Below, in pieces: positions 5,532 through 64,000 of a stretch of 64,000 bases of DNA (positions are counted from its first letter, which is position 1; the number at the start of each line of letters is the position of its first letter). Below the pieces are notes generated by a model, which was not told the origin of the DNA, made no database searches, and saw only the letters and a list, made by a program, of their open reading frames with translations. The DNA comes from an archaeon (GTDB lineage Archaea; Nanobdellota; Nanobdellia; Woesearchaeales; GW2011-AR9): positions 15,385-79,384 of the forward strand of contig JAUYKZ010000002.1 in NCBI GenBank assembly GCA_030704845.1. The letters are read 5' to 3'. Made by a program: the position numbers and the translations under genes.

Positions 5532-5747
5532 GCCTCAGTCAGAGAAATTACCAGTATTTATAAATATTCAGAAGATTCGTTGATTACTTCCGCTGGGTCT
5601 CATACCTCGCAGTTATACTGCGATGCGATTAGACCCAAGGAACGTACCAAAAACTAAATATTAATTCATACCCTAAAGTTCTGCTCCGATTGGTTTTTTG
5701 ATTTAATCTTCGAAATCTTTAAATGAAGAAGTCCTTACAATCTGATT

Positions 5748-6845: not shown

Positions 6846-6938
6846 TATACTAAAGTGCCAAAGCTTTCGAACTTATTTTTGGCACTTTATATATATAAAA
6901 TGCGTTAATATATTCGAAATCTAACGCATTTTAGTATA
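6846..6938 (+). mobile_element. MITE-like element, copy 2
   Basis: Identical over 93 nt to 138..230. Flanked by TA. Confidence 0.85.
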
Positions 6939-9565: not shown

Positions 9566-10687
9566 ATGCCCGTATTATCTTTATGTATGATTGTAAAGAA
9601 CGAGGAAGAACATTTAGAAAGTTGCCTAAATTCCGTAAACGACCTTGTCGATGAGATTGTGATTGTTGATACTGGCAGTACCGACAAAACCAAAGAAATT
9701 GCTAAAAAGTTCACAAAGAAATTATTTGATTTTGCTTGGTGTGATGATTTCGCAGCGGCTAGAAATGAAAGTCTGAAGCACGCAACTGGTGATTGGGTTC
9801 TAGTTTTAGATGGGGACGAAACTCTAGCTGAGAATGATTTACTTCAAATCAGGGAAATAATTAATCGAAAAGATGTTGTCGGTTCTGTCCTTATTCAAAG
9901 AAATTATATTAAAGATTTAAAAGATGTAGAATTAGGAAGGATTGGTGGTATGAATGTCCTCGAAGCAGGTCATGGCGATAAAGGATTTATCAAGTCTGAT
10001 GGTGACAATTATTTTGAAAGTAAAAATCTTGCAGGATGGTTTGCAACTCCTATTGTTAGGTTATTTAAGAGACAAACAGCCGGTTCACTTGCTTCTTTCA
10101 ATGGCGTAGTTCATGAAGACGTTACTCTTTCTTTGAAAGGAGATATAATGACTACAAATATACCCATTCATCATAAGGGCAAATTAGATGTTGAGAGCTG
10201 GAAGAATAAGTGGGCACTTTATGAACACCTTGGTGAAAAGAAAGCAGAGGTCGAGAAGGATTATCATGCTTACTTTGAGTTAGGAAGACAATATGCAGCT
10301 TCTAAAAAACTTGATAAGGCAAAAGAAATGTTTCAGAAATCAATAAGTCTAAACAAAGATTTTTGGTTATCTTGGTTTAATCTAGGTAGTATCTCTTTAT
10401 TGGAAGACAATCTTAACAAGGCCCAAGAATGTCTTGAAAGGGCAAGAACTATAAATCCGAACGCAGTGATGATTTACAGTAATCTTGGTGTAGTTTATGC
10501 TAAAAAGAAAGAATACCCAAAATCTTTAGAAATACTAACTTTGGGGTTAAATTTAGATCCCAATCAACCTTCAATTTTTAAAAACATGGCTCTTTGTTAT
10601 AAAGAGCTTGGGGATATGAAGCGGGCTCAACTTGCTTGGAGAAAAGCAGTTCAATTAAATCCCGGTTATGCTGTTAAAAAAGATTAA
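9566..10687 (+). CDS. GT2-family glycosyltransferase domain + C-terminal TPR repeats
   Basis: LSLCMIVKNEE..IVIVDTGSTDKT..DDFAAARNESLKHATGDWVLVLDGDE, followed by TPR-like repeats in the C-terminal half. Confidence 0.7.
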   Translation: MPVLSLCMIVKNEEEHLESCLNSVNDLVDEIVIVDTGSTDKTKEIAKKFTKKLFDFAWCDDFAAARNESLKHATGDWVLVLDGDETLAENDLLQIREIINRKDVVGSVLIQRNYIKDLKDVELGRIGGMNVLEAGHGDKGFIKSDGDNYFESKNLAGWFATPIVRLFKRQTAGSLASFNGVVHEDVTLSLKGDIMTTNIPIHHKGKLDVESWKNKWALYEHLGEKKAEVEKDYHAYFELGRQYAASKKLDKAKEMFQKSISLNKDFWLSWFNLGSISLLEDNLNKAQECLERARTINPNAVMIYSNLGVVYAKKKEYPKSLEILTLGLNLDPNQPSIFKNMALCYKELGDMKRAQLAWRKAVQLNPGYAVKKD

Positions 10688-18967: not shown

Positions 18968-18985
18968 TTTGGCAATTAAATAATG

Positions 18986-19078
18986 TATACTAAAATGCGT
19001 TAGATTTCGAATATATTAACGCATTTTATATATATAAAGTGTCAAAAATAAGTTCGAAAGCTTTGGCACTTTAGTATA
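18986..19078 (-). mobile_element. MITE-like element, copy 3 (inverted)
   Basis: Reverse complement of the 93-nt element, with a single mismatch. TA-flanked. Confidence 0.85.
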
Positions 19079-50799: not shown

Positions 50800-51010
50800 T
50801 TTGAATTGTAATCCTATAATAAATTTAAGGATTGTTGTTCTGGATAGATGAAATAAAGGAATTTTGTTATTGTTTACAATGTACTATGTTTTAACACACA
50901 TCGAAAATCTTATAACTCGGTTATGAAAAAGATTTGATTAATCTTGGTAAGTTTTTTAAATAAGGTTAATAATTAGATGTTTTGGGTGGTTTTCTGGTTT
51001 ACTGTTTAAG

Positions 51011-51994
51011 ATGATTGACTATATTGTTCCGGAATTGAAACAGAATCCTCACGATTGGGATACGTGGCTTTTTTATTCTGACCTTCTTCAAGGTCAAGGT
51101 AATCCTCTTGGAGAATTAATTGCTTTAGAACATCGTTTATTTTTCTCTTCAGGTCCTCTTGTAGGTTCTGATCATTCTGCTTTAATGGAAGCTAGAGAAA
51201 AAGCTCGGAATGGTGTAAAAGAAGATCTGAAGAAAAAAGGTGTTTCTCATGTTCTTGATTGGTATCACGGCCTTCCTCGTGATGTTGATTTTAATGGTAA
51301 TAATGAACAGAAATCTGAATTAGTTAAATGGAATCCTTTCATTCGGTGTATTGGGACAATTCAAGGATCTTACGGGGATTTCTCTCAACTAGTCCCTGGC
51401 ACCAGAAGACACGTTGACGAATTGTGGAATGATAGGCTGGTTAATCCTGAACTGAGAGATAAATGTTTTTATACTGCGGATGGAGCAATTTATTTCATGC
51501 GCGATGGCAAACCTTATTTTGCTTTTACTAGAGAAAGAAGCAATCCTGCTTTCAAGAATCTTAACGAAGCATGTAAGCAATTACAAGATAATGTTAATTA
51601 TACTGTTTCTGAAGAAGATTTAGAATCCGCTCTTGCTGATCCAGAAACGGAATTATTTGAGTTATCTAAATTAAACGGGAATAACTCCTTCTTTACCGAA
51701 TTATCTACTAAAAATCCTAAACTAGATTCTCTTAGTGAGGATGGAAGAAGGTTAATTCATCGTGTTTATGGCAAAGATAATTTTGATGAAGTCATGTCTA
51801 TGTTAGCTAAACGGTGGTCTATAACAAGAACTTACGTTTTGAATCCTGATTATGTTCGTGAACATGCTTCTGCTGGTGCATTCGGGCGGGCGTCCTGGTT
51901 GGGCAGCAATAGCTTCCTCGCAAGTGATTGCGGTATCAATCTTCATTACCGCCTTCGTGGGGTAGTTCAATCCGAGCCCGCAGGCGAGAGTTGA
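51011..51994 (+). CDS. DGR variable (target) protein
   Basis: 327 aa. The C-terminal FGRASWLGSNSFLASDCGINLHYRLRGV is encoded by the VR. The pattern (..SW..variable..R.RG.) resembles the C-type-lectin/FGE-like VR scaffold. The N-terminal KQNPHDWDTWLFYSDLLQGQGNPLGELIALEHRL resembles the TIGR02996-type segment. No signal peptide or TM helix. Confidence 0.75.
   Translation: MIDYIVPELKQNPHDWDTWLFYSDLLQGQGNPLGELIALEHRLFFSSGPLVGSDHSALMEAREKARNGVKEDLKKKGVSHVLDWYHGLPRDVDFNGNNEQKSELVKWNPFIRCIGTIQGSYGDFSQLVPGTRRHVDELWNDRLVNPELRDKCFYTADGAIYFMRDGKPYFAFTRERSNPAFKNLNEACKQLQDNVNYTVSEEDLESALADPETELFELSKLNGNNSFFTELSTKNPKLDSLSEDGRRLIHRVYGKDNFDEVMSMLAKRWSITRTYVLNPDYVREHASAGAFGRASWLGSNSFLASDCGINLHYRLRGVVQSEPAGES
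51880..51965 (+). repeat. DGR variable repeat (VR)
   Basis: 86 nt aligned by hand to 52272..52357 at a constant offset of 392 nt. There are 14 differences, all at template A positions. Confidence 0.85.
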
Positions 51995-52012
51995 GTTTAA
52001 AGGAGAGTTTTT

Positions 52013-52029
52013 AACCGCCGGAGGCGGTT
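52013..52029 (+). promoter_or_regulatory. GC-rich hairpin about 50 nt downstream of VR (terminator and/or DGR target-recognition stem-loop)
   Basis: AACCGCC-GGA-GGCGGTT, a 7-bp stem in an AT-rich context, 19 nt after the target stop codon. Confidence 0.4.
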
Positions 52030-52271
52030 CGAAAATAATATAGGCTAGATAATAGAAATATTATTAAAAATCTTAGATTCATTAGTTTTTCTCAGCACTC
52101 CTTATTTGAGGAGAGGAGATGCTGGACTACACGCTCTTGTGCTATGATCGAGGTGACTTGGTTATGAAACTTTCATTATAGACTAATTCTATAGTGATAA
52201 GACAGCTATGACAAATTACTTAAGAGTAATCTTGAAGTAGTAGAGAAAGTATACAGCATTAAGAGCTACTA

Positions 52272-52357
52272 ATTCGGGCGGGCGTCCTGGTTGAGCAACA
52301 ATAACTTCAACGCAAATGATTACAATATCAATAATCATAACCGCCTTCGTGGAATAG
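52272..52357 (+). repeat. DGR template repeat (TR)
   Basis: In the target frame it reads FGRASWLSNNNFNANDYNINNHNRLRG, with AAY-rich variable codons. It contains 28 A, of which 14 are substituted in VR. It ends in the shared GC-rich block CCGCCTTCGTGG. Confidence 0.85.
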
Positions 52358-52773
52358 CCCAGCATCTGCTGAGACCTTTTCAATTGGCAGGATATAGAAA
52401 TCTTTGGCAGGAAGTCTGTGATTATAGTAATCTATTGTTAGCATATAAGAAAGCACGAAAGCACAAAACTCAGCGTCCATATGTTCTTGAGTTCGAGGAA
52501 AATCTTACAGAAAACCTAAAATTATTACAAACAGAACTTTTTCTTCATTCTTATCGTCCACGACCATTAGAGACTTTCATTCTTAGAGATCCAAAGACAA
52601 GAAAGATTAGCAGATCAGATTTCAGAGATCGTGTTGTTCATCATGCTTTATGTAATATCATTGAACCTTTCTTTGAAAAAGTTTTCATTTATGATTCTTA
52701 TGCTAACAGAAAAGGCAAGGGAACACTAAAAGCAATAGAAAGATTTGAAGATTTTTATCGTAAGTTATACTAA
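52291..52773 (+). pseudogene. DGR-type reverse transcriptase, N-terminal stump (about 130 aa of RT), truncated at a MITE
   Basis: ..YSNLLLAYKKARKHK..PLETFILRDPKTRKISRSDFRDRVVHHALCNIIEP..IYDSYANRKGKGTLKAIERF.. is about two-thirds identical by hand alignment (75/115) to the N-terminus of the full RT at 61661..63367. It lacks the GNLTSQ and YVDD motifs. There is no ATG in the frame; the track start is TTG at 52291 inside the TR, and another TTG lies at 52384. The stop TAA is supplied by the MITE end. Confidence 0.8.
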
Positions 52774-52949
52774 AGTGCCAAAGCTTTCGAACTTATTTTT
52801 GGCACTTTATATATATAAAATGTGTTAATATACTCAACGCTAAATGAAATTTGGAACTTAATTCATTTAGCGTTTGTATATACCAACGAAAAGTTCACAA
52901 AAATACTTTTCGTTCAGTATATATTCGAAATCTAACGCATTTTAGTATA
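52766..52949 (+). mobile_element. MITE-like element, copy 4, carrying a nested second MITE
   Basis: The left 65 nt and right 28 nt match the 93-bp element (1 mismatch). It is interrupted at an internal TA. Confidence 0.85.
52831..52919 (+). mobile_element. nested 89-bp MITE (second subfamily) inside copy 4
   Basis: TIR is TACTCAACG / CGTTCAGTA. TA is duplicated on both sides (52829..52830 and 52920..52921). Two hairpins (AACGCTAAATGAA..TTCATTTAGCGTT and AACGAAAAGT..ACTTTTCGTT) are separated by TATATA. It has the same 89-nt length and architecture as the host MITE core. Confidence 0.75.
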
Positions 52950-53187
52950 CAATTAATTTAAGGATTATTGTTCTTGATGAACCACATCAAGAGAGTAACT
53001 GCCAAGTAACAACAAAGTCGAAACATTTATATTTCCGCTACAGATTAATAGCGCTTTCCCCAAAATCGCTACAAGCGGATGAGCTTGATATTTGGAGCGT
53101 GTCTGATCCTTTTTTCTGAACATCGTCAGAAATGACCAGTCTTATATGGTTAGTGTAAGGGCTTGGATATATAGTTTGTGTCCACCT

Positions 53188-53214
53188 TGTCAAGTCTGTC
53201 AAGTGTACAAGTCC
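53188..53214 (+). repeat. three tandem 9-mers TGTCAAGTC / TGTCAAGTG / TACAAGTCC
   Basis: Located 57 nt downstream of the integrase stop. Related boxes flank the other side of the same gene: ATCAAGTCC at 54301..54309 and the inverted GACTTGACA at 54344..54352. Confidence 0.5.
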
Positions 53215-53270
53215 ACTCTCTAAGATGATAAGAATTCTATTTCAATCAATATAAAATTATCTGCCGCATT

Positions 53271-54233
53271 TTATCTTTCCATAGAGCTTACTACAACAGC
53301 ATTCTCCTGCTGAACAGGCCCTCCTTTTCTCATCTGACGACTCTCATATAATGCCCTATTCTGCATTAGTTTCTCAGCTTCTTCTACAGCTATTTTACTC
53401 GTGTTTTTGACGTTATCTGGGCTTCCATTACTGATAATAATTGATTGTTTGACTAATTCCTTAAGTTCAGATATTTCGTCTTTAAGAGCCTTCATTTGAG
53501 CCCCTTCCTGCTCTGGAATGGTGTTGAATACCTCATTGACTATATCTCTCTTGGCCACGAGGCTTGTTGTTAGATATCTTTCTGTACTTCTTAGGTTTTT
53601 GTGTCTTCCTGTTATTTGAGCTGCAAATACGCCTCTCCTGTCGCAGATCTTCTGCAGATAATAGTGCCTGAGTGTATGATAGCTTAAAACTGAGAGAGTA
53701 TGGCCATCTTTTGTCATTCCATACTTATGATCTAAACCAGCTTTCTTTCTCGTATCTTCAAGATGTTTTCTGATGGTTTGTTCTGCTAGGTGCTTTTCTT
53801 TATGGCCTGACTTCATTACTCTCATTCTCCAGAAAAGGTAATATTCTCCTCTGAGTTCATTTTGATTGATGTCTTTGCCATGACTTCCATTAAGAACTAT
53901 TTCTGACTTGTATTTCATGATGTGATCTTTTATCCGTCTCATCATTTCATCAGGAATTATGATCTTCTCAAATCGTTCTTTATTCTTTTGTTCAGGTAGA
54001 GTGAGTGTCTTGTCCATGAAGTCTATGTCTTCAATTCTTATTCTGCAGGTTTCAGCGCTTCTTAGGCCAAGCATTGCTGCACAGCAGTAAACATTTTCCC
54101 AAAAGAACACATATTTCTCTTCTTCTATAAATGGAATTGCAGAGAGGAATCTACCGAGTTGTTCTTCTGTGATTGTCTTTTCCTTGGCTTCGTTCCTGTG
54201 CCCAAATTGCATCCTCCCATTGTTGACTTTCAT
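53271..54233 (-). CDS. tyrosine recombinase / integrase (copy 1)
   Basis: 320 aa. Box I LGLRSAETCRIRIEDID, HTLRHYY, and GRHKNLRSTERY with the presumed nucleophile Tyr. Confidence 0.8.
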   Translation of the reverse strand: MKVNNGRMQFGHRNEAKEKTITEEQLGRFLSAIPFIEEEKYVFFWENVYCCAAMLGLRSAETCRIRIEDIDFMDKTLTLPEQKNKERFEKIIIPDEMMRRIKDHIMKYKSEIVLNGSHGKDINQNELRGEYYLFWRMRVMKSGHKEKHLAEQTIRKHLEDTRKKAGLDHKYGMTKDGHTLSVLSYHTLRHYYLQKICDRRGVFAAQITGRHKNLRSTERYLTTSLVAKRDIVNEVFNTIPEQEGAQMKALKDEISELKELVKQSIIISNGSPDNVKNTSKIAVEEAEKLMQNRALYESRQMRKGGPVQQENAVVVSSMER

Positions 54234-54466
54234 GTTGTAGAGTAACCCCTCTCATAAGAATATTCGTGTCCATTGTCATTTATAATTCCCGTGTCCCCAT
54301 ATCAAGTCCAAGAAAACCACAGAGGAAGATAGTGGGAAAAATAGACTTGACAGTATCTGACAAATGCAGAAATTCTGTAGAAAATAGGTATTTTGAGGAC
54401 AAGATTTATATATGCTGATAGTCTCACAAAGTATAGACATTAGCGGAAATTACCGAGGAGAACACA

Positions 54467-54634
54467 ATGCCAGAGAAAATAAAGATGAAAACAAAAAACC
54501 TGATCATAGAGCCAGGAAACATAGAAGTCAAAACGGTTGTAAAATCTGGAAATGGAGCAGTAATCCCATACACCAAAAAATACATCGGAAAAGAAGTTTA
54601 TGTAATCTTAAAAGAGAAATGCAAGACTGAGTAA
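54467..54634 (+). CDS. small AbrB/SpoVT-like (swapped-hairpin) protein, 55 aa
   Basis: Not in the track (under 60 aa). MPEKIKMKTKNLIIEPGNIEVKTVVKSGNGAVIPYTKKYIGKEVYVILKEKCKTE has the G-N-x-x-x-I-P..G..V.V pattern. Preferred over the out-of-frame track ORF 54412..54630. Confidence 0.45.
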   Translation: MPEKIKMKTKNLIIEPGNIEVKTVVKSGNGAVIPYTKKYIGKEVYVILKEKCKTE

Positions 54635-54710
54635 ATGATCATAACGGGATTGAGTATTCTCGCAAAAGTACCCTCAATCCCGATGAGTAAAACCATAGGA
54701 GGTCATACCC

Positions 54711-55028
54711 ATGAAGGGAAATAAACACAAAGATAGATATAAAAATGTCGGTTCAGAACCGAAAAAAGAACAACCAGCAACAGAACAGAGCATTTTGCCA
54801 CATCGAGAAATTGCCTATCAAGTTCTAAAAGATAATGGCAAGCCAATGCATTACAAAGAGATAACTGCAGAAGTTCTCAAAAGAAGCAAATCAGTAGGAA
54901 CTACACCACAGAATAGTATTTTCTCGAGATTAATTACTGACACGCAGAAACGCTTTGTAAAGACTGCAAAAGGTACATTCGGATTAACTGAATGGAATTC
55001 TAAGGAGGCTGAGAAAAATGCCAAATGA
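54711..55028 (+). CDS. HARE-HTH domain protein
   Basis: LPHREIAYQVLKDNGKPMHYKEITAEVLKR...TPQNSIFSRLITD..RFVKTAKGTFGLTEW matches the HARE-HTH (RpoE-delta N-terminal-like) pattern. Confidence 0.6.
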   Translation: MKGNKHKDRYKNVGSEPKKEQPATEQSILPHREIAYQVLKDNGKPMHYKEITAEVLKRSKSVGTTPQNSIFSRLITDTQKRFVKTAKGTFGLTEWNSKEAEKNAK

Positions 55029-55362
55029 AACAGGATTAATCTCGGCTGTTAATCAGAGAGAAAGCAACAAGTACGGAGTCAAGATCAATGATGAATGGTA
55101 CGGTGGATATGGTGTTTGTCCTGTAAAGAAAGGCGATACTGCTTCTGTTGAATACAAGCTAAATGGTAAGTACAGAAATATCATAAAGATAGAAAGAGAA
55201 AAAGAAGCAGAAGCCCAACCAAACAACAAAGATAATGTTGTGGAAGATATTCATCTCCAAGTTTGTCTTAAAGCAGCTGCACAAATCTTAACAGGAACAA
55301 AAACGCCAGCATCAGAAGTAGCACAATACTCAAGAGAACTTCTAAAAGAGATCTGGGGATGA
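55018..55362 (+). CDS. hypothetical protein
   Basis: 114 aa, overlapping the upstream gene by 11 nt (operon-like). No motif recognised. Confidence 0.45.
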   Translation: MPNETGLISAVNQRESNKYGVKINDEWYGGYGVCPVKKGDTASVEYKLNGKYRNIIKIEREKEAEAQPNNKDNVVEDIHLQVCLKAAAQILTGTKTPASEVAQYSRELLKEIWG

Positions 55363-55367
55363 TTTAG

Positions 55368-56249
55368 ATGGCTCAAGACGCAAAAGCAAAATCAATCACA
55401 GAGGCACAATTTAATATGTTCATGGAAGCAGTAAGAGAAATCGAGAAAAGATATGACGATGATTATGTGAAATTCTGGGAGAATACTTACTATTGTGCAA
55501 GCGAACTCGGATTAAGAAGCGTCGAAGTATGCAAGATAAAAGTTGAACACATTGACTTCTTTGAAAAGACTTTGCTTTTACCAGAACAGAAAAATAAAGA
55601 AAAATACGAGAAGATTATAGTCCCTGATTTTATGGTTGACAGATTCAAAGATCATATTTTGAATTACAAATCACAGATTGCACTTGCTGATAATTATCTT
55701 TTCTGGAGACAAAGATATGGAAGAACTTCAAGATGTGGAAGAACCCCCACATCTGGAAAATATGTTTTAGGGAGAGAACAACACATGAGTCCTGGAACAA
55801 TAAGAACCCATACAATTAGAGCAAGAAAGAAAGCAGGACTCGACCATAAATATGGCAAAAGCAATTCAGGCCATCAATTATCTGTATTGAGTTTTCACAC
55901 ATTAAGACACTTTTATTTACAAAAAATTTGTGATAAGAGAGGTGTTTTTGCTGCACAAATCTGTGGAAGACACAGAAATCTTAGAAGCACTGAGAGATAC
56001 ATTAAATCAAGCTTACAAGCAAAAAGAGATATCGTGAATGCAGTCTTTAACACAACTGAAGAGAAGCATTCTGTGGAAATTGATCAATTAAAGAATCAAA
56101 TTACTGAGCTGACAAATTTAGTAAAAGTTATCGCTACACCACAATCAGCTGCATGTACTCCTGCAACACACAAGTTTGCAGAAGAAGAAGCGATCATGAT
56201 GCTTCAAAACAATTTATTCAATCAAAAACGAAGAGTGGAGAGAGATTAA
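55368..56249 (+). CDS. tyrosine recombinase / integrase (copy 2, paralog of 53271..54233)
   Basis: 293 aa. LGLRSVEVCKIKVEHID, HTLRHFY and GRHRNLRSTERY. Long collinear identity with copy 1 (for example KKAGLDHKYG....GH.LSVLS.HTLRH.YLQKICD.RGVFAAQI.GRH.NLRSTERY). Confidence 0.8.
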   Translation: MAQDAKAKSITEAQFNMFMEAVREIEKRYDDDYVKFWENTYYCASELGLRSVEVCKIKVEHIDFFEKTLLLPEQKNKEKYEKIIVPDFMVDRFKDHILNYKSQIALADNYLFWRQRYGRTSRCGRTPTSGKYVLGREQHMSPGTIRTHTIRARKKAGLDHKYGKSNSGHQLSVLSFHTLRHFYLQKICDKRGVFAAQICGRHRNLRSTERYIKSSLQAKRDIVNAVFNTTEEKHSVEIDQLKNQITELTNLVKVIATPQSAACTPATHKFAEEEAIMMLQNNLFNQKRRVERD

Positions 56250-56250
56250 A

Positions 56251-56460
56251 ATGAGAGAATGGAACTGTCCAAAATGCAAGAAAACAGTAACTTGTCATCC
56301 TGGAACAAGTAGACGAGACAATAAGACAAAAATATGTTCTGAATGTTGTACTGACGAGGCAATATTTGATTTTCAAGTAGCTCTTTCAAAACAGAAAAAG
56401 AAAATCTTTCCAGAGAATTTTATTGCTCTGGAGAAAGAATGGCTCAAGGAGGTAAACTAA
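56251..56460 (+). CDS. small zinc-ribbon protein
   Basis: 69 aa with CPKC ... CSECC cysteine pairs. Confidence 0.45.
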   Translation: MREWNCPKCKKTVTCHPGTSRRDNKTKICSECCTDEAIFDFQVALSKQKKKIFPENFIALEKEWLKEVN

Positions 56461-56461
56461 G

Positions 56462-56839
56462 ATGACATTAGATGTAAGAATAGGTAAAAAAATAGGAGAT
56501 TCTTCTGTTGAACAATGTCCTGATGCTAAAGAAAACATTTGTGATCCACTGCATACAAATTGGCCAACAGAATCGTACAGAAGTGGAAATAACTTTTCAT
56601 TCTGGAAGTTTTTTACAAAAAACAAGGACTTGAAAGCAATATATTTGGAGATGAGAAAACATCCAAATACAAATGATTTGGATTTAGCACTAATCAAACC
56701 ATTTCTAAAACGTATAAACAAACTAAAAGATGCTGATTTTGTCAATGAAGTAGATAAGGATAGATTGAAGTGGCTAAAATATTGGAGTAACAAAGCAGTT
56801 GAATTATATGGAAACGAAGCAGCTATTTTATTTAGTTAA
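56462..56839 (+). CDS. hypothetical protein
   Basis: 125 aa, tightly packed after the upstream gene. No motif recognised. Confidence 0.4.
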   Translation: MTLDVRIGKKIGDSSVEQCPDAKENICDPLHTNWPTESYRSGNNFSFWKFFTKNKDLKAIYLEMRKHPNTNDLDLALIKPFLKRINKLKDADFVNEVDKDRLKWLKYWSNKAVELYGNEAAILFS

Positions 56840-56851
56840 GGAGAGTGGACA

Positions 56852-56989
56852 ATGGTTGATAAATATGAAAAAAAGCATATCAAAGCCATCAAGAACTGTG
56901 TAACAGATGACGATTTGGCTGTTGTAATTAACAGAATCTATGATGATGGTTTTCAGGATGGAGCAAACGAAGGTTCAAAATCCAAATAA
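56852..56989 (+). CDS. small ORF (45 aa)
   Basis: Not in the track. AAGGAGAG box upstream of the ATG at 56852. Product is MVDKYEKKHIKAIKNCVTDDDLAVVINRIYDDGFQDGANEGSKSK. Confidence 0.3.
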   Translation: MVDKYEKKHIKAIKNCVTDDDLAVVINRIYDDGFQDGANEGSKSK

Positions 56990-57023
56990 TTTCTTTATTC
57001 TTTCCCAAAGTGAGATCTTGATC

Positions 57024-57245
57024 TTATGTTTGCTTGTGATTTTCTGATATGTTTTTTTGGTCATTTAAAGCACTCTCCTTACGTCTTTTAATCTCATTGT
57101 CTAGGAATGTACTAAAGGCCATCAAATCCTTTGTATTATGGTTTATTTTGTATTTGAAACCTACCCTGTGCATGTCAATAAGCTCTTTCAGAGTTACTAT
57201 TATCCCCCCTTGTGACGATAATTTCATTGTATCTCCTTTATGCAA
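57024..57245 (-). CDS. hypothetical protein
   Basis: 73-aa ORF. No motif recognised. Confidence 0.3.
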   Translation of the reverse strand: MHKGDTMKLSSQGGIIVTLKELIDMHRVGFKYKINHNTKDLMAFSTFLDNEIKRRKESALNDQKNISENHKQT

Positions 57246-57596
57246 CTCATAACAGCTTCAACAACTGTAACAGATACTGCATTTCCACATTGAGTATATC
57301 TTTGAGTTTCTGCAACTCCTTCGGTCCAATTATCTGGAAACCCTTGTAATCTTTCTGTCTCAAGTGGTGTGAGTCTGCGTATATATCTCTGCAATAAACG
57401 GAATATGATTTCCTCCTGTTTTGCTTGTGGGTATTGTCGGAGCAATTCCCGATATCGAATAGATTCTTTTGCTTTGATAGTCGCCGTCATAGATGAGTTC
57501 CCACCCATTACTGCCATGATTATTTAGATCGTCTTCTGCTATTTCTTTGAGTCTCTTGTTTACAACTTTGTATTTCCAATTTGCCAATTTAATCAC
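57224..57596 (-). pseudogene. remnant of a DNA cytosine-5 methyltransferase (C-terminal part only, frameshifted) behind a DUF4177-like N-terminus
   Basis: Frame A (57360..57596) has WKYKVV..LNNHGSNGWELI, then QSKRIYSISGIAPTIPTSKTGGN (TRD-end-like). Frame B (57224..57517) has IRRLTPLETERLQGFPDNW....QCGNAVSVTVV (motifs IX-X). The frames switch near 57385..57395. Catalytic motifs I-VI (FxGxG, PCQ, ENV) are absent. Confidence 0.6.
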
Positions 57597-57825
57597 CTGG
57601 AGGTTCGATGTCTATGATTTTTCCTGTAGTCCTGCTTTCGAGTGCAATATCAGAGTCTGTGATGCTAAGTTCGATGAATATCTTTTTTCTTTCAGCAACT
57701 CCTTGATTGTCTACAAGCCATTTCAAGACAACCCCTTTCTTGTCTAAGCTGTGAATTATTAGAGAGTTCTTGACGTAATCTGTAAGATTCTCAATTTCTG
57801 TCATTTTGTCTTGAATTGTTGCCAT
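57589..57825 (-). CDS. hypothetical protein
   Basis: 78 aa, between the structural genes and the MTase remnant. No motif recognised. Confidence 0.35.
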   Translation of the reverse strand: MATIQDKMTEIENLTDYVKNSLIIHSLDKKGVVLKWLVDNQGVAERKKIFIELSITDSDIALESRTTGKIIDIEPPGD

Positions 57826-57828
57826 TGT

Positions 57829-58584
57829 TTATTCCTCGTATCCCTCAAATCTTGCGAATACTTCTTTACTTCCTCCGCCGAGATTTGTTCTCCTAAGAAT
57901 TATTTTGTGAGTACTGTTTCCTGTAATCTTTTCAGATAAGTCAAACTTGTCAGAGCTTCCATTAACGTAAAGTGTGGCGATTAAGATTAATGTGACTCCA
58001 TCTCCTGAGGGATTGTCGTATAAGGTTACTTTGCATGCTTTTGTTGCCTCTTCACTTCCTGCAAGAAGTCTCCCTATGACAAGTTTCTTTCCATTTGTTA
58101 TTGTGTATACTGAATCTGTATTGCCTGAGACAGTTCCGAAAGCAGTAATTATCACAGGTGTTGTTGAAGCTGGGGGTGTGGCAGGAGGAGTTGCGACAAG
58201 CAGTCTTCCAGAACTATCTACAGAAGCTTTAAGCAATGGATTATTTGAATCTCTAATTATGAAAGAATCGATTAAAGTAAGATCTGATTTTACAAGTAAT
58301 TTGCCGTCAACATCAACTTTTGCTTTGATGTTAGAAATAGGATCTTTGATAGTAAATGAATCAATTTGTACTATATCATTTTTTATTAGCAGTTTTCCAT
58401 CTGCATCTACTATTGCCTGACTGTTTGTTGTTGCATCCTTTATTGAAATTGAATCAATACTGACGTTTCCTTGAATATTTGCGTTAATGCTTCCATTAGG
58501 TTCGACTTGAATACTGCTCACTATCTGCTTTAATTCAGTCACTGTTCCTTTCAATTGTTCAAGTATTTCTGTGTCGATTCCCAT
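57829..58584 (-). CDS. repeat-containing structural protein (fiber/decoration-like)
   Basis: Three tandem repeats of about 29 aa (IDSISIKDATTNSQAIVDADGKLLIKND / IDSFTIKDPISNIKAKVDVDGKLLVKSD / IDSFIIRDSNNPLLKASVDSSGRLLVATP). They are followed by a PATPPASTTP linker and a beta-rich C-terminal domain. Its start overlaps the stop of the capsid gene. Confidence 0.45.
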   Translation of the reverse strand: MGIDTEILEQLKGTVTELKQIVSSIQVEPNGSINANIQGNVSIDSISIKDATTNSQAIVDADGKLLIKNDIVQIDSFTIKDPISNIKAKVDVDGKLLVKSDLTLIDSFIIRDSNNPLLKASVDSSGRLLVATPPATPPASTTPVIITAFGTVSGNTDSVYTITNGKKLVIGRLLAGSEEATKACKVTLYDNPSGDGVTLILIATLYVNGSSDKFDLSEKITGNSTHKIILRRTNLGGGSKEVFARFEGYEE

Positions 58585-59321
58585 TAATCTATCACCGCCA
58601 CAGCATTTCCATTGAGAACTATTGGAGCAATTCTTTCTCTAAGTAAAAATCCTTTTTTACTTTGCCAAGGATCTGAATAATCAGATATCTCAAGAGGAAC
58701 TCTTTCAATTAGAAGGCCTGCATTTATCGAATCAAGAATTATAACAACATTCTTAGGAACAGAAGTATCGATGATAACTTCAATCGCATAAGTGATTAAT
58801 TTATCTTTTAGTTCATCTCGTTGTCTTAATGATTCTGCAATCTTTGGATTAAGTAGAATTACATCAGGATGATATTTGTTGTCTTCAATAAACTTTATTG
58901 CCGAAATAAAGTTGTCAAGTATTGGTTTCTCTCTAACATGATCTTTTGTTTCGGTAGTTATCTTTTTTCCTGCTCCAGCAATCAATGTTTCAATAACTAA
59001 TTTATTTTCAATCTCTGCAAGAATAAAACTTTCATTGATAGATTTTTGAAGCATCTCATTGATTCCATTATCTTCAAAGCATTCTTCAGAAAAAAGAATT
59101 GTGGCCTTAATAGTCAAAGGAAAGACAACAACAGATTCGACATCAAAAAGAGATATTGGAGCTGTACCCAAATTGGGTACGATTGCACCGTTCACATTCT
59201 TGATTTTACTTATCTTTATTGCAGAGCCATCAGTCTGCTGTTGCAGTCTTAATACTCTTGGACCTATACGAAACTTTCCTGCTTCAATTAGCACTTGAGA
59301 CTTGACAGTAGATAGGTCCAT
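58584..59321 (-). CDS. HK97-fold major capsid protein paralog B
   Basis: 245 aa, collinear with 59360..60166. The C-terminus ILDSINAGLLIERVPLEISDYSDPWQSKKGFLLRERIAPIVLNGNAVAVI follows the HK97/encapsulin C-terminal pattern. Confidence 0.55.
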   Translation of the reverse strand: MDLSTVKSQVLIEAGKFRIGPRVLRLQQQTDGSAIKISKIKNVNGAIVPNLGTAPISLFDVESVVVFPLTIKATILFSEECFEDNGINEMLQKSINESFILAEIENKLVIETLIAGAGKKITTETKDHVREKPILDNFISAIKFIEDNKYHPDVILLNPKIAESLRQRDELKDKLITYAIEVIIDTSVPKNVVIILDSINAGLLIERVPLEISDYSDPWQSKKGFLLRERIAPIVLNGNAVAVID

Positions 59322-59359
59322 GTAGCATTACCTCTAAAAAAATAATTTGATGACCTATT

Positions 59360-60166
59360 TTACAAGATCATCTTTGAGACTGCGTTGTCATCAAGTACTG
59401 CAGGTGCAACTCTCTCTGTTATAGTAACTCCAGCTGCAAGATCTCTTAATGGATCTGTGAAGTTCTCTATGGACAAAGGTCGTCTTTCAACCAGCACACA
59501 TGCTCTACTGTCTAAAGCAAGTATTGTTCCTGGCTCTACTGCTGTGGTTTCAACTACTTGAAGACCAGCAACATTTCCCACGATGCCTGTCTCGTCAAGT
59601 CTATCAAAAGCTTTGTATCCTTTGCCGATAAGGTCTTTCTCGAGCTTTGCCAAGTCATCAGGGTGTGCAACAAGCCATGCAGCTTTGTAGCTGTGTCTGT
59701 TTACTGCATTTCTCAAAGTTACAACGTCTTCTTGGACAAATTGTCCTGCAGTCTTTGGCGAGACTGTATTCGTTGTCTTCATCAATACTCGGAAGATTTC
59801 TTCATCTTCTTTTCTTGCAATGTCTTCTGCAGCCATGTCAGCTTTTAATCTGACAACATCAAATGCTGAATCTTCAATTGCTTCTTTCGGTATAGCAAAT
59901 GCTTTTCCGATCTTATATGGTGTCACGACAATTTCATTGAATGTGCTGACATCCATAGGGATTGCTCCCAGTTCAGGAATTACATAAGCTTGTCCTGCTC
60001 CCATCTTAGGGATTTTCAGTGCAGATCCTTCACTCAAAGTGATCAGTTTCACAATTTTTCTTCCTACTCTTTCTCTGCCTGCAACCTTAAACACGTTGGA
60101 GTCTATGACTTCCTTGATGAGAGGTGCAGCGTCTTGACTTGAAAATAGTTCTTGCATTGTTTTCAT
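59360..60166 (-). CDS. HK97-fold major capsid protein paralog A
   Basis: 268 aa. ARKEDEEIFRVL (the conserved acidic ..ED..if helix), AAWLVAHPDDLAKLEKD (..vl.P.dw..l) and the C-terminal ALDSRACVLVERRPLSIENFTDPLRDLAAGVTITERVAPAVLDDNAV match the HK97 capsid/encapsulin layout. It lies downstream of the protease, scaffold and decoration genes. Confidence 0.6.
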   Translation of the reverse strand: MKTMQELFSSQDAAPLIKEVIDSNVFKVAGRERVGRKIVKLITLSEGSALKIPKMGAGQAYVIPELGAIPMDVSTFNEIVVTPYKIGKAFAIPKEAIEDSAFDVVRLKADMAAEDIARKEDEEIFRVLMKTTNTVSPKTAGQFVQEDVVTLRNAVNRHSYKAAWLVAHPDDLAKLEKDLIGKGYKAFDRLDETGIVGNVAGLQVVETTAVEPGTILALDSRACVLVERRPLSIENFTDPLRDLAAGVTITERVAPAVLDDNAVSKMIL

Positions 60167-60180
60167 TTTGCCTCTCCTCC

Positions 60181-60555
60181 TTATTTGACTATTTTTACAG
60201 GAATCTTTCTTGTTACTGGGCTACCACCAGTCGAGTTGTCTATCTTCTCGTATGCTTTGGCCACTGCTACTCCTGTGTTTTTTGCTTGCAGTGTTTTGTT
60301 GTCTTTGACTTCAAGTTCATCCCCAACATTCAGGGTTGCTGAAGCTGCAACTGATACATCCACATAGAATGTTCCGATGCATCCTACTGATGCAGGGTTT
60401 TCTTGTGGTGTGTCTTTTAAGCAGACTCCAAGTATGTCCGCTTGTGCAGATGCTGGTTGAACTGTTAGTCCAACAAGCTGTCCTTTTGTAAGGTCTGCAT
60501 TTGCAACGAGCATGCTTGGGTTCTTTCCGTCGTCAATCATGATATCGTATGTCAT
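60181..60555 (-). CDS. head decoration-like protein (DUF2190-like)
   Basis: 124 aa. ..ADLTKGQLVGL....ILGVCLKD......GTFYVDV......LNVGDELEV.. follows the DUF2190 pattern. Positioned between the scaffold and capsid genes. Confidence 0.45.
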   Translation of the reverse strand: MTYDIMIDDGKNPSMLVANADLTKGQLVGLTVQPASAQADILGVCLKDTPQENPASVGCIGTFYVDVSVAASATLNVGDELEVKDNKTLQAKNTGVAVAKAYEKIDNSTGGSPVTRKIPVKIVK

Positions 60556-60568
60556 TTTGATTCACCTC

Positions 60569-61042
60569 TTAGTTCTCCTTTATTCCAAGTGCAGAAGCGA
60601 TTTCTTTTTTCTTGTCTGTTGCTTGGTTTGAATTGTTGATCAAGGATTTTCTGTCGCCTATGCTTTTGTGCAGTTCAAGTATTTTCTTTGTCTGTTTTGC
60701 ATAGGAATCAAATCCTCCTTTTTCGTCAAGTTCTCTCATTTCGTTGAGTCTTTGTTCTTTGTTTGTCTCAAGGACACCGAGCTTTTCTTCAGCATCTATA
60801 ATTTCTCTCAATGCCATGTCTCGTGAATCTTGCTTGATTCTCTTCAATTCTTTCGTGACTGTCTCAAATTCTTTCATCAATTTCTCGTGCTTTGCAGTCA
60901 TGTCCGAGATAAGTTTGTCTTTTGAAGATACTTCCTGATTTAGCTTTGCAATTTCTTGTTCTTTTGCAGCAAGCTCTTCAGCGGCTTTCTTCAATAGTAT
61001 TTTTGCCTGTTCAATTTCTTTGACTTCCGCCATTTTAATCAT
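60569..61042 (-). CDS. scaffolding protein (coiled coil)
   Basis: 157 aa, strongly E/K-rich with heptad character. Positioned between the protease and capsid genes. Overlaps the protease gene by 8 nt. Confidence 0.5.
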   Translation of the reverse strand: MIKMAEVKEIEQAKILLKKAAEELAAKEQEIAKLNQEVSSKDKLISDMTAKHEKLMKEFETVTKELKRIKQDSRDMALREIIDAEEKLGVLETNKEQRLNEMRELDEKGGFDSYAKQTKKILELHKSIGDRKSLINNSNQATDKKKEIASALGIKEN

Positions 61043-61631
61043 TGCCTCCGTTCTCTATAGGATTGATTTTTGCATCTTTACATGCAGGATCATCTACAAG
61101 ACTCAATTCTTTAAATTCGAGATTGCGAGCTACTTGCACTCCATTCTCCTCAACATTATCTATCAACACACCAACACTCACAGAATCAATCAGATTATCT
61201 AGAAGTTTTTGTACTATTTCTGCGTCAGTTACTATTGCTTCAAACTCAACTCTCTTGGTATCTTGCATCCATGTTGACTTGAGTACTTTTCCAACAATAT
61301 CTCTCGTGCTTGTTGAATGATCTATCCTTAGTGGTTTCCCTTCAAGTCCACTGTATGCTTTCTCAAGTTCATCTGCAGGATAGAATATGCCGTTCCAAGT
61401 TCCTTCACTTATTGCAACTCCTGATATTCTAAGAGAAGTACCTTCCTTGAGAACTTGATGGATTTTTACATTTGTAAGCTGTACATGTTCAAGTTGTCGT
61501 GATAAGGTTTTGATTTTAGGAGCTACGCTGTTATTTACAAGAAAGCTCTCTATCAATTCTTTTGAATCTTCTTTTTGATTCTCAACAGAGTTGATGAACT
61601 CGTAAATTTCCTTGATAAGTAATTCAACCAT
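61035..61631 (-). CDS. HK97-family prohead protease (S78/U35-like)
   Basis: 198 aa. ISGVAISEGTWNGIFYPADEL..GKPLRIDHSTSTRDIVGKV (His region) and LIDSVSVGVLID (Ser in an SxG-type motif) match the prohead protease layout. Confidence 0.6.
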   Translation of the reverse strand: MVELLIKEIYEFINSVENQKEDSKELIESFLVNNSVAPKIKTLSRQLEHVQLTNVKIHQVLKEGTSLRISGVAISEGTWNGIFYPADELEKAYSGLEGKPLRIDHSTSTRDIVGKVLKSTWMQDTKRVEFEAIVTDAEIVQKLLDNLIDSVSVGVLIDNVEENGVQVARNLEFKELSLVDDPACKDAKINPIENGGND

Positions 61632-61660
61632 AACATCAGAAATCTGTTTTTTTCTTAATA

Positions 61661-63367
61661 TTATTTTAGTAGAGAAACCTTTGAAGGCTGATTATTTTTA
61701 TGATTACTCTTACGAAGATTTTGTCTAAACTCTCTCCATGAGACAAATCTTTTCTTATCCTGTTCAGGTAGAACACATATTTTTACATGAGTATTAAAGA
61801 AGTCCAGAAACTCATTCTTCGTAAATCGCAATTCGGCACCTTTAGCTACAAGTTGTTGAAATTTTACTCTACATTCTTGTCTTTGACTTTTGTTATAATA
61901 ACATTTTCTAAAACAATTTGTTCTTTTATACCAGTCAATAAAATACATAATACTTTTCTTTTGGTGTTTTCCTCTCAAATTAGCAAGAACACAATTTATT
62001 TCATTATAAGTTACGGTATCATCTTTGATCCTTTCTTTTATATCTTTTAATTTGTCATCAAGAGACTTTATATTTGCAAGAATAATTTTAGTTTTATTTT
62101 CAGGTATTATTGATTTGAGAGTTAGCTGATGATTTTCGACAAGACATGCAACATGATCCCATACTGTTCCTTCTTTAATCCCTCTTGTTTCTGCAATCTT
62201 TTTCGCAGTCATGCCCTTTTTGATTAATTGTAAAGTTTTTTGTTGACTGAATTCAATTTCACTTTCATCAACTTTATGATTAAAATTTTCATGTTTCTTT
62301 ACAGAAGTTATAATTACTTCTGGTCTAGCTGGAAAAGCAATATTAAATTTAGCAGTCATTCTTCTTCGGTATTTGTATGTATTGGCGTGAGAAGCATATG
62401 CTAACCATCCCTCAAATTTTTCAATAACTTTTTCTCTATCAATTTTGCCATCTAAATATTCGTATTTCATTTGTTCCATTTTTTTCTCGAATTTTCTCAT
62501 ATTCTTCTGCACGAGAAGTTTGTGATTGTAGAATACTCTAAATCCGAGAAATCCTATTCCTTTTTCCAGTTTTAGAACTTGTGATTTATCGGGATGCAAT
62601 TTTAGATCCAACTTCACACGTAGAAATTCATCTATTTTGGATTTATATTCATCGAGAACAGTGCTTGATTGATGCAGAATGGCAAAGTCATCCACATATC
62701 TTATGTAATATTGTGCTCTTAATTTATGCTTCACAAATTGATCGAGTTCATTCAGATACACATTTGCAAAGAATTGCGATGTTAAATTTCCAAGAGGCAT
62801 TCCTTTGTTTTCACATTCGCCTTTATGATTTGCAAGTATTTTCTTAATTAGCCACATTAGTCTTTGATCTTTTATTCTGTTGCTCAATAATTCGATGAGT
62901 ATTTGATGATTTACTGTGTCAAAGTAGCTTTTGATATCTGCTTTTAGAACATAGCATCGGATAGTGTTATTTTTTGAAACCTTTCTTTTAAATTCGTCAA
63001 ATCTTTTGACAGCGTTTAAGGTACCTTTGGTGAGTCTATTCGCATATGAATCATATATGAACCTTTTATCGAATACGGGTTCTATAATGTTGCAAATTGC
63101 ATGGTGAACAACTCGATCTCTGAATGCAGATTTGCTTATCTTCCTTGTTTTTGGATCTCTAAGAATGAATGTCTTAAGGGGTTGGGGTTCATAGGTCTGC
63201 ATTATTAGTTCATATCTTAGTTGTAGAAGATTTTCCTTTAGTTTTTCTTCAAATTCGATAACATAGCGTTTTAGGGTTTTGCCTCGTCTTGCTCTGTTAA
63301 ACGCAGTCTCTAGGTTTTCATATGAACAAAGTTCTTCATAAACATTGATTAATTCTTTTTCAACCAT
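61661..63367 (-). CDS. DGR-type reverse transcriptase, full length, with about 230-aa C-terminal extension containing an HTH
   Basis: FILRDPKTRKISKSAFRDRVVHHAI, DSYANRLTKGT, GMPLGNLTSQFFANVYL (DGR-diagnostic motif 4), IRYVDDFAIL (YxDD) and GWLAYASHANT (thumb). The extension then contains LIKKGMTAKKIAETRGIKEGTVWDHV (HTH) and a Cys/basic-rich tail. It lies 29 nt upstream of, and is co-oriented with, the protease gene. Confidence 0.85.
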   Translation of the reverse strand: MVEKELINVYEELCSYENLETAFNRARRGKTLKRYVIEFEEKLKENLLQLRYELIMQTYEPQPLKTFILRDPKTRKISKSAFRDRVVHHAICNIIEPVFDKRFIYDSYANRLTKGTLNAVKRFDEFKRKVSKNNTIRCYVLKADIKSYFDTVNHQILIELLSNRIKDQRLMWLIKKILANHKGECENKGMPLGNLTSQFFANVYLNELDQFVKHKLRAQYYIRYVDDFAILHQSSTVLDEYKSKIDEFLRVKLDLKLHPDKSQVLKLEKGIGFLGFRVFYNHKLLVQKNMRKFEKKMEQMKYEYLDGKIDREKVIEKFEGWLAYASHANTYKYRRRMTAKFNIAFPARPEVIITSVKKHENFNHKVDESEIEFSQQKTLQLIKKGMTAKKIAETRGIKEGTVWDHVACLVENHQLTLKSIIPENKTKIILANIKSLDDKLKDIKERIKDDTVTYNEINCVLANLRGKHQKKSIMYFIDWYKRTNCFRKCYYNKSQRQECRVKFQQLVAKGAELRFTKNEFLDFFNTHVKICVLPEQDKKRFVSWREFRQNLRKSNHKNNQPSKVSLLK

Positions 63368-63368
63368 A

Positions 63369-63478
63369 GTAATATACGGTATATTACAGTTGATTTATTA
63401 ACATTGTTTCGATCTTTGAAAACATATGTAATATACTGTATAATACTGTGTTTATTAGTTATATACAGTATTATACAA
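63369..63478. promoter_or_regulatory. three operator-like palindromic boxes in the divergent RT / AbrB-like promoter region
   Basis: GTAATATACGGTATATTAC (63369..), GTAATATACTGTATAATAC (63429..) and GTTATATACAGTATTATAC (63458..). Each contains ATAC-N-GTAT. The spacing is about 60 and about 29 nt. Confidence 0.5.
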
Positions 63479-63481
63479 TCT

Positions 63482-63679
63482 ATGACAGATGAAAAGCGCC
63501 AAATTATAGAACGGTCTGTAAAACAGTTAAATACTTATGGCAACGGAATCGGAGTTTTAGTGACGAGGGAAGCCAAAGCAATAGGACTTAAAAGTGGAAG
63601 TAAAGTCCAAGTAAGTGCAATAAAAACAAAAGATAAAGAATTTATCATTATTGAAAAATTCCCGATTACTGAAGAATAA
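63482..63679 (+). CDS. AbrB/MazE-like (SpoVT-AbrB) DNA-binding protein
   Basis: Track ORF is 63404..63679. The ATG at 63482 (MTDEKRQ) avoids the operator region. GNGIGVLVTREAKAIGLKSGSKVQVS has the AbrB-like looped-hinge pattern. Confidence 0.5.
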   Translation: MTDEKRQIIERSVKQLNTYGNGIGVLVTREAKAIGLKSGSKVQVSAIKTKDKEFIIIEKFPITEE

Positions 63680-63883
63680 AACTCAGTTCATACACGATCT
63701 CTTTGCCTTATAAACTACTTGTGTTTTCTAATTAAATAGTGGACTCTCAAATAAACCAATGATAGATGAAACTACTGGCAAGTGATGAATAAATCGAAAC
63801 ATTTAAATATTAGTTGTACTACCTAATAGTAAATACATATTGATTGCATGTTAAAAATATACAAAACATATGGTGACAACATA

Positions 63884-64000
63884 ATGACTGAATTCACATT
63901 AACAAAACAAATCAGCAAACAAGGTACACAAAATATAATTATAATACCTGCATTCCTTAGAGAAAAGCTAAAACCAAAAATGTTAGTCGAGATAAAAATC
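63884..64000 (+). CDS. AbrB-like small protein, partial (runs off the window)
   Basis: MTEFTLTKQISKQGTQNIIIIPAFLREKLKPKMLVEIKI is open to the window end. A CGAAACATTTAAATA BRE/TATA-like box lies about 85 nt upstream. Confidence 0.35.
   Translation, partial: MTEFTLTKQISKQGTQNIIIIPAFLREKLKPKMLVEIKI

Follow-up and report, generated by a model that had tools for sequence, protein, structure and literature searches.

Features of a probable nanoarchaeal-type diversity-generating retroelement with a truncated reverse transcriptase in a DPANN archaeal chromosome

RESULTS AND DISCUSSION

Organization of the locus

We analyzed a 64,000-nt stretch of an archaeal chromosome (Woesearchaeales, GW2011-AR9; assembly GCA_030704845.1, contig JAUYKZ010000002.1, positions 15,385 to 79,384; here called the window), in which a gene ends in a variable repeat (VR) that recurs downstream as a template repeat (TR), followed by the stump of a reverse transcriptase (RT) gene. 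We consider this locus very likely to be a genuine diversity-generating retroelement (DGR) cassette of nanoarchaeal type whose own RT has been cut off about 125 codons in. The components are listed below, where IMH denotes the initiation of mutagenic homing site and IMH* its counterpart in TR.

51011 to 51994, forward: target (variable protein) gene, 327 aa, with VR at its 3' end
51880 to 51965, forward: VR, with a mutagenized stretch at 51902-51947 (12 A-to-N changes)
51949 to 51965, forward: IMH-like 3' block of VR, CCGCCTTCGTGGGGTAG, with TGGGGT at 51958-51963
52013 to 52029, forward: GC-rich hairpin AACCGCC-GGA-GGCGGTT, beginning 19 nt past the target stop codon
52093 to 52245, forward: structured 5' domain of the TR RNA, matching Rfam RT-11 (RF03106) over its full length
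52272 to 52357, forward: TR, with 28 adenines
52341 to 52357, forward: IMH* block of TR, CCGCCTTCGTGGAATAG, with TGGAAT at 52350-52355
52359 to 52374, forward: 3' flank of TR, which pairs with the 5' domain and closes TR in a three-way junction
52384 to 52773, forward: remnant of the cassette's own RT (RT1), with a likely TTG start at 52384 and a stop at 52771-52773
52766 to 52949, no strand: palindromic repeat resembling a miniature inverted-repeat transposable element (MITE), with terminal inverted repeats TATACTAAAGTGC/GCATTTTAGTATA, starting where the RT homology stops

The VR/TR repeat and its mismatch pattern

MAFFT, an ungapped comparison and a repeat finder all agreed on the coordinates of a gap-free 86-nt direct repeat with an offset of 392 nt between VR and TR. 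A preliminary description, made from the sequence by eye, had reported 14 differences confined to template adenines, and the machine alignment reproduced this exactly: TR has an A at all 14 differing positions (52294, 52298, 52304, 52309, 52310, 52316, 52322, 52324, 52325, 52333, 52334, 52339, 52353 and 52354), replaced in VR by G (nine), T (three) or C (two), and none of the 58 non-A positions of TR differs. Since 28 of the 86 TR positions are adenines, a hypergeometric test gives P = 8.8e-9 for 14 of 14 mismatches on A; without the terminal GG/AA pair described below, 12 of 12 fall on A (P = 7e-8). An ordinary duplication that diverged with no retroelement involved is refuted by this mismatch spectrum, in which every change is at an A of the TR copy (P about 9e-9), and the presence of an RT remnant, an RNA motif of an RT-associated family, an IMH/IMH* motif and a hairpin at the same locus makes that explanation vanishingly improbable.

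Read in the frame of the target gene, TR translates as FGRASWLSNNNFNANDYNINNHNRLRG. Its adenines fall at codon position 1 or 2 in 24 of 28 cases, nine variable codons are of the AAY type, and no A-to-N change in this frame can produce a stop codon, in keeping with the stop-free design proposed earlier. A repeat pair that differs almost solely at TR adenines, and a VR that lies in coding sequence and has its adenines in the first two codon positions, are both expected of DGRs and are both present here. The earlier count of 14 changed adenines out of 28 is correct as a count, but two of them (51961/51962 in VR) belong to a fixed IMH/IMH* pair, leaving 12. We read these 12 differences as stochastic A-to-N mutagenesis and the other two as a directionality signal. 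The 12 changes recode nine residues, plus V/I, a refinement of the approximately 10 first estimated. A window-wide scan of the 64 kb revealed no further VR for this TR (TR1) and no further A-biased repeat pair.

IMH, IMH* and the hairpin after VR

The shared GC-rich 3' block, previously suggested as a candidate IMH, carries the TGGGGT/TGGAAT pair of the DUSEL4 Nanoarchaeota DGRs, which have an IMH with TGGGGT, an IMH* with TGGAAT and GRA-triloop hairpins (Paul et al. 2015, PMC4372165). The last two VR/TR differences, GG in VR and AA in TR at 51961/51962, correspond to this conserved discriminator. Among the loci that we fetched for comparison (L numbers), the GG/AA pair followed by TA(G) also ends VR and TR in three unrelated DGRs (L009, L019 and L034); in L009 the VR ends in ...CGTCGGGGTAG and the TR in ...CGTCGGAATAG, and L034 shows the AA signature on the TR side only (...GTGGAATAG). 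The pair at 51961/51962 is a fixed nanoarchaeal IMH/IMH* signature and not a product of random mutagenesis.

The hairpin at 52013-52029 is the sole GC-rich GGA-loop hairpin in the 64-kb window, with none after TR, and GGA-loop hairpins also lie 3' of both L009 VRs and of the L019 VR. It is a candidate cruciform or target-recognition element. The locus therefore has the IMH, the non-identical IMH* and the GC-rich inverted repeat 3' of VR only that are typical of DGRs in general, as well as the TGGGGT/TGGAAT pair and GRA-triloop hairpin that mark the nanoarchaeal type.

The TR RNA as a closed module

The region upstream of TR matches Rfam RT-11 with 108.2 bits (E 8e-23, model positions 1-147), and the gathering score of that model is 143.5; the segment at 52093-52245 is thus best described as a divergent relative of RT-11, not as a curated member, given that the gathering threshold is not reached. 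RT-16 (RF03019) scores 41.6 bits on the TR1 RNA, under its own gathering score; in L009, L019 and L017 it exceeds that score directly 5' of the respective TR. RT-11 and RT-16 were defined near RT genes, and only RT-10 was explicitly tied to DGRs (Weinberg et al. 2017, PMC5737381). The matches reported here place two motifs of previously open function, RT-11 and RT-16, directly 5' of DGR TRs.

In the predicted fold, 52090-52096 pairs with 52368-52374 (helix A) and 52117-52125 pairs with 52359-52367 (helix B), and folding of 52085-52400 (316 nt) gives z = -4.5. The ddG of the cognate closing helices at this locus is -12.9 kcal/mol, versus -1.7 for shuffles. The same three-way closure is found in L009, L019 and L034 with entirely different sequences; across the four loci, cognate ddG values range from -9.7 to -12.9 kcal/mol, shuffled flanks from -1.7 to -2.8 and non-cognate pairs from -0.4 to -7.0. 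The long-range closing helices thus covary across the four loci, suggesting that a long-range pairing, which is not part of the Rfam RT-11 and RT-16 models (PMC5737381), encloses the DGR template. Because helices A and B close it, the TR RNA would be a self-contained module of about 52090-52374, and its end at 52374 precedes the likely RT start codon.

The target gene and its family

The preliminary description had placed the DGR in an archaeal chromosome. This assignment holds up, and the host is of DPANN type: the target paralogues on the same contig are labeled "archaeon," and the RT relatives are Woesearchaeota or Nanoarchaeota. The close target family has 18 members, and five further paralogues come from the same metagenome-assembled genome (MAG; "archaeon," Q8Q01_*), including one on the 96,872-nt contig that contains the window. 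L001 and L029 stem from a related species (about 81% DNA identity) and carry a target homologue at the same chromosomal place, preceded by Lon, ScpA, nucleoside phosphorylase and dUTPase genes but with neither TR nor RT.

The family alignment is conserved apart from the block GRASWLxxxxFxAxxxxxxxxxxLxGVV. In an entropy test on 14 aligned C-terminal sequences of the family, codons templated by A at position 1 or 2 had 2.27 bits versus 0.76 bits for the other VR codons (Mann-Whitney p = 1.6e-5). The A-only mismatches and the full set of cis elements are thus accompanied by family-wide hypervariability at A-templated codons. A profile search recovered 675 clusters (at 50% identity) that have the core of residues ~112-327 and the same hypervariable C-terminus, and this core family has no Pfam domain or PDB relative.

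At the N-terminus of the target, residues 10-43 resemble a TIGR02996-like helical domain (E 1.5e-5, under the cut-off), and the protein has no hydrophobic segment. An AlphaFold (AF2) model of the full-length target reached a mean predicted local distance difference test (pLDDT) score of 83 and a predicted template modeling (pTM) score of 0.77; Foldseek searches with it against PDB and BFVD gave no match below E = 0.1, and VR residues 301-310 have a pLDDT of 48. A model of the C-terminus only (pLDDT 47) was too poor to search. The C-type-lectin (CLec)/FGE-like fold suggested earlier was accordingly not found, with the VR loop modeled at low confidence; the target also has no Pfam match to FGE-sulfatase or DUF1566, and a PDB sequence search was empty.

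Annotated VR regions are reported to be systematically CLec (Roux et al. 2021). As in the CLec variable proteins Mtd, TvpA and AvpA, the window target has a C-terminal module of ~27 residues with AAY-encoded variable positions, and its scaffold GRASW...F.A...RLRGV loosely recalls the CLec GGSW...A.R...GFR; unlike those proteins, it lacks a Pfam (FGE-sulfatase/DUF1566), PDB sequence or Foldseek match to CLec. A separate, speculative possibility is that the VR module is a non-CLec scaffold common to at least 675 clusters. The family is large and has no annotation or structural analogue, and if its module is not CLec, it would depart from what is currently the rule.

Five homologues (P0003, P0010, P0014, P0015 and P0017) run ~50 residues beyond ...SEPAGES (NSDRAKKRGRLSVF...), and in the window target, stop codons within 51992-52033 end the protein just 5' of the GC-rich hairpin. 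In the longer homologues the hairpin probably lies inside the open reading frame (ORF), as reported for DUSEL4 (PMC4372165).

Truncation of the cassette RT

The preliminary description also had a DGR-type RT frame following TR, and this does not survive closer analysis. The ORF at 52291-52773 passes through TR, and RT homology within it is confined to 52399-52767, corresponding to residues 8-130 of an intact RT elsewhere in the window (RT2, described below), with which it has 63% protein and 76% DNA identity. Similarity to RTs stops at about 52762-52767, so that ~125 codons are kept, and neither Pfam RVT_1 nor the LGxxxSQ and YxDD motifs occur in the frame 52291-52773. A tblastn search with RT2 detected no 3' remainder of the gene in any window frame or in the fetched loci, including L008 and L009. 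The intact DGR-clade RT expected of a complete cassette is therefore missing, RT2 being 9 kb away and part of another DGR; lacking the catalytic domain, the cassette's own RT cannot make cDNA.

The truncation point lies at the MITE-like repeat, beside the end of a virus-like element. Other copies of the repeat occur in the window at 138-230, 6846-6938 and 18976-19078 (93-103 nt, 95-97% identical). An assembly artefact, in which the contig is chimeric at a 70-nt multi-copy repeat or the RT is only interrupted by a small repeat, would account for RT homology stopping exactly at a sequence with such similar copies nearby; independent contigs span 54998-64000 only, and other contigs of the MAG break at the corresponding point of paralogous target genes. 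Against this stands the lack of any RT 3' part after the repeat, elsewhere in the window or in L008/L009, and a chimera is made less likely because a repeat copy would still have to sit inside the RT gene. We judge an artefact improbable.

What remains of RT1 shows no sign of age: the frame is open, and 36 of 36 clade-invariant residues are kept in comparison with the 24 closest aligned relatives. Because the RT1 remnant is undecayed and TR and VR differ at none of the 58 non-A positions, we infer that the truncation is recent.

The same lack of decay bears on the alternative that the cassette is a young dead relic, its RT lost through the MITE-like repeat and the virus-like element and its A-only pattern a fossil of the last retrohoming event. 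TR, the non-A sites of VR, the RT-11 domain, the closing helices, the hairpin and the RT remnant all show no decay, and a relic, if it is one, must hence be very young. The absence of every catalytic motif from RT1 speaks for this alternative, as do surveys in which more than half of candidate DGRs were inactivated by truncations (Wu et al., PMC5758913). In L019, a further TR/VR pair, already with one non-A mismatch, adjoins an RT that is likewise cut short, and in L001 of the related species the target homologue has no adjacent TR or RT and a rearranged VR. We give the relic explanation a little less than an even chance.

We also considered, and rejected, a simple inversion or a homologous exchange involving RT1 and RT2 as the origin of the stump; both genes would then still be complete, and their identity is only 63% in protein and 76% in DNA.

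A neighboring virus-like element with its own DGR

Beyond the repeat lies an integrated virus-like element with the following main features.

53004 to 64000 and continuing past the window end, no strand: integrated virus-like element with integrases, a capsid gene and RT2
53271 to 54233, reverse: tyrosine integrase, above the Pfam threshold
55368 to 56249, forward: tyrosine integrase, above the Pfam threshold
59360 to 60166, reverse: HK97-type major capsid gene (Phage_capsid, 8e-23)
61661 to 63367, reverse: RT2, 568 aa, with RVT_1 and HTH_40 domains and the motifs LGNLTSQ and YVDD

The element also encodes a HARE-HTH protein, and its matches to cement, scaffold, protease and SPP1 gp7-like proteins are weak. 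It is a candidate Caudoviricetes-like provirus, but no terminase or portal was identified in it, and its right end lies outside the window. No tRNA gene was found in the window, so tRNA-linked integration is not supported, and element and host cannot be told apart by GC content. Over 54998-64000, Logan contig L008 matches the window at 100% identity, and it reaches 2.5 kb farther; SRR13727534 is a read set that yields a contig with this match, and independent coverage is limited to this interval. Contigs from other samples (L009 to L016) carry the RT2 block at 98% identity beside a different flanking gene: they follow the window from 64000 back to 61048, jump to 53396-53004 and then enter that gene. 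Because the flank differs, the insertion site of the element varies among strains; in the window its left end probably lies near 53004.

RT2 is the sole intact DGR-type RT in the window. It belongs to a type with more than 7,000 database relatives, the named ones being Woesearchaeota or Nanoarchaeota, and no relatives of RT2 or of the target were found in a viral contig collection. The DGR of RT2, a second and complete one carried by the element, is seen in L009 at the equivalent of the region beyond window position 64000, where an RT-16 RNA precedes a TR (TR2) at 1831-1915, and the VRs lie at the 3' ends of targets of 295 and 307 aa (2095-2982 and 4962-5885). All mismatches of these VRs (10/10 and 13/13) are at A within the first 62 nt. 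The two targets are paralogous, end in QGRVLFV...GRFVGVAPEAPGARKK and adjoin genes for a MoxR-like AAA ATPase and a 656-aa protein, with an SPP1 gp7/Mu F-like gene nearby. Judged from these mismatches, the DGR of RT2 looks active. TR2 is ~6 kb from the RT2 gene and on the opposite strand, which means that RT2 naturally uses RNA made in trans.

Several side observations concern this element. Related strains lack the 7.65-kb block 53397-61047, which holds the integrases, the capsid genes and a 97-aa ORF (57224-57517, reverse) that is a C-terminal fragment of a C-5 cytosine DNA methyltransferase (Dcm; Pfam positions 255-323/324). L009 has at 9857-10570 a 237-aa ORF in which the first ~194 protease-like residues are fused in frame to the last 42 integrase residues (window counterparts 61035-61631 and 53271-53396, respectively), and this fusion could be the product of either a deletion or a site-specific recombination. 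The 656-aa protein of L009 had no family-search match; a von Willebrand-type (DxSxS) motif was read in it by eye.

Possible mechanism and present activity

We propose that a DGR RT would copy the TR RNA (about 52090-52374), misincorporating opposite adenines, and that the resulting cDNA would then overwrite VR in the last part of the target gene (51011-51994). The difference between IMH (TGGGGT) and IMH* (TGGAAT), together with the GGA-loop hairpin 3' of VR, would set the direction, and up to 14 codons of the target C-terminal module could be recoded. The VR/TR pattern appears to record recent activity of this kind. With its own RT destroyed, however, any present-day diversification of the target would need an RT supplied in trans, for which RT2 of the neighboring element (61661-63367) is the nearest candidate.

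On a tentative but tenable reading, the cassette is still active: RT2, or some other RT encoded in the genome, would serve it in trans, with the TR1 RNA as an autonomous module. The RNA module at 52090-52374 is intact and ends before the RT start codon. RT2 has its usual TR RNA encoded ~6 kb away on the opposite strand, the RNAs of TR1 and TR2 have sequence blocks in common on both sides of TR (CUACACGC, GUGAAGUGG, GCUAC, the GGAAUAG end and the closing 3' flank), and RT-16-type RNAs go with RTs of both clades. Trans action has been demonstrated experimentally for the BPP-1 DGR, and DGR components can act in trans and on remote targets (PMC5758913). Set against these points, the 5' domains of the TR1 and TR2 RNAs are of different Rfam subtypes, and RT1 and RT2 are only 63% identical over their common region. 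The more specific proposal, that an RT-less chromosomal cassette is run by the RT of the adjacent virus-like element through a module usable by any compatible RT, we consider unlikely.

Several observations weigh against the picture of a truncated nanoarchaeal-type cassette that has recently been, or could still be, diversified in trans. The junction at 52762/52766 is known from one assembly only. Scans with VR/TR 20-mers returned only chance matches in high-GC bacteria from a genome contig collection, and only chance matches and L029 (the related species) from a metagenome contig collection; no additional alleles of VR or intact versions of the cassette were found in the scanned collections, and look-ups by exact protein sequence gave no record for the target or for its paralogues P0002 and P0003. 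Two paralogues from the same genome (P0002 and P0003) have VR residues that TR1 cannot template by A-to-N changes, such as W or Y where TR1 has AGC, so the genome must have other TRs, and probably other RTs, elsewhere. Finally, the TR1 5' domain is of the RT-11 type and the cognate RNA of RT2 of the RT-16 type, and because of this difference compatibility between RT2 and TR1 is not assured.

The identification of the locus as a nanoarchaeal-type DGR cassette with a truncated RT remains very likely in our view. Its cis-acting RNA module is intact and its enzyme gene destroyed, making it a natural test case for trans action of archaeal DGR RTs, including action across the boundary between host and virus. 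If such action were true here, hypermutation of a host gene would depend on the enzyme of a resident mobile element.

Comparison with known systems

The preliminary description had called DGRs rare in DPANN archaea, which overstates the case given the more than 7,000 RT relatives, the 675 target clusters and a nanoarchaeal description dating from 2015 (PMC4372165). The literature already describes DGRs of DPANN archaea and their IMH and hairpin signature, as well as orphan targets, genomes with more than one target and incomplete cassettes, and the bare finding of a cassette therefore adds one more example to a group known to be abundant. The window cassette is like the DUSEL4 Nanoarchaeota DGRs (PMC4372165) and the later-surveyed DGRs of DPANN and the candidate phyla radiation (CPR) in its TGGGGT/TGGAAT pair and the GRA-triloop hairpin after VR. 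It further resembles these DGRs in that VR lies at the C-terminus of an "orphan" protein, a genome has more than one paralogous target, incomplete cassettes occur and the RT clade is common to Woesearchaeota and Nanoarchaeota. It differs from them in three respects. Published partial DGRs consist of target and VR only, whereas the window cassette keeps TR and a structured RNA, with the RT as a 5' stump; the hairpin lies inside the gene in DUSEL4 and 19 nt past the stop codon here; and, unlike in DUSEL4, an intact RT lies 9 kb off in a virus-like element with its own TR and VRs.

The DGR of Bordetella phage BPP-1 (mtd-avd-TR-brt) is alike in its A-specific mutagenesis, in a VR at the 3' end of the target, in a TR flanked by structured RNA and in a GC-rich IMH followed by an inverted repeat. 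In contrast to BPP-1, no avd-like gene and no target fold were recognized in the window cassette, its structured RNA (RT-11/RT-16 type) is upstream of TR instead of in a downstream spacer (RT-10), and the gap from TR to the RT start is only 27 nt. Compared with the published Rfam motifs (PMC5737381), the window RNA matches RT-11 over its full length at a score below the gathering threshold.

Additional observations

In L001 of the related species, a VR-like block with an indel (5800-5892) lies in the target homologue, and a second partial VR-like copy follows ~200 nt downstream (6026-6120), ending in ...RLSGVVSSEPAGES-stop. This arrangement suggests a past rearrangement or an aborted homing event.

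The MITE-like repeats form an intergenic family with four copies in the 64 kb and terminal inverted repeats ATATACTAAAGTGC...GCATTTTAGTATAT; where it adjoins RT1, the repeat reaches 184 nt and carries two extra internal hairpins. A 31-nt direct repeat (87% identical; 50815-50845 and 52948-52978) flanks the target, TR and RT stump together and may be a duplicated promoter or an att-like sequence.

In the clade closest to the RT1 remnant (65-76% identity), RTs are nearly all called as short ORFs. The RT frame is broken within a G run in three unrelated contigs (L017 at ~6547, L033 at ~4568 and L034 at ~4543), with run lengths of 10, 12 or 11; the next frame resumes after the run with G(M/L)PLGNLTSQFFAN...YIRYVDDF, and the joined RT would measure ~360-380 aa. 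The frame correction across the run is +1 or -1 depending on the locus, and among the short RT proteins, about 15 in a set of 24 and 37 in a set of 59 end in GGG followed by an out-of-frame tail. In the literature searched, no paper connected DGRs with tracts of this kind. The G tract looks like a conserved slippage or phase-variation switch that would gate expression of the DGR RT.

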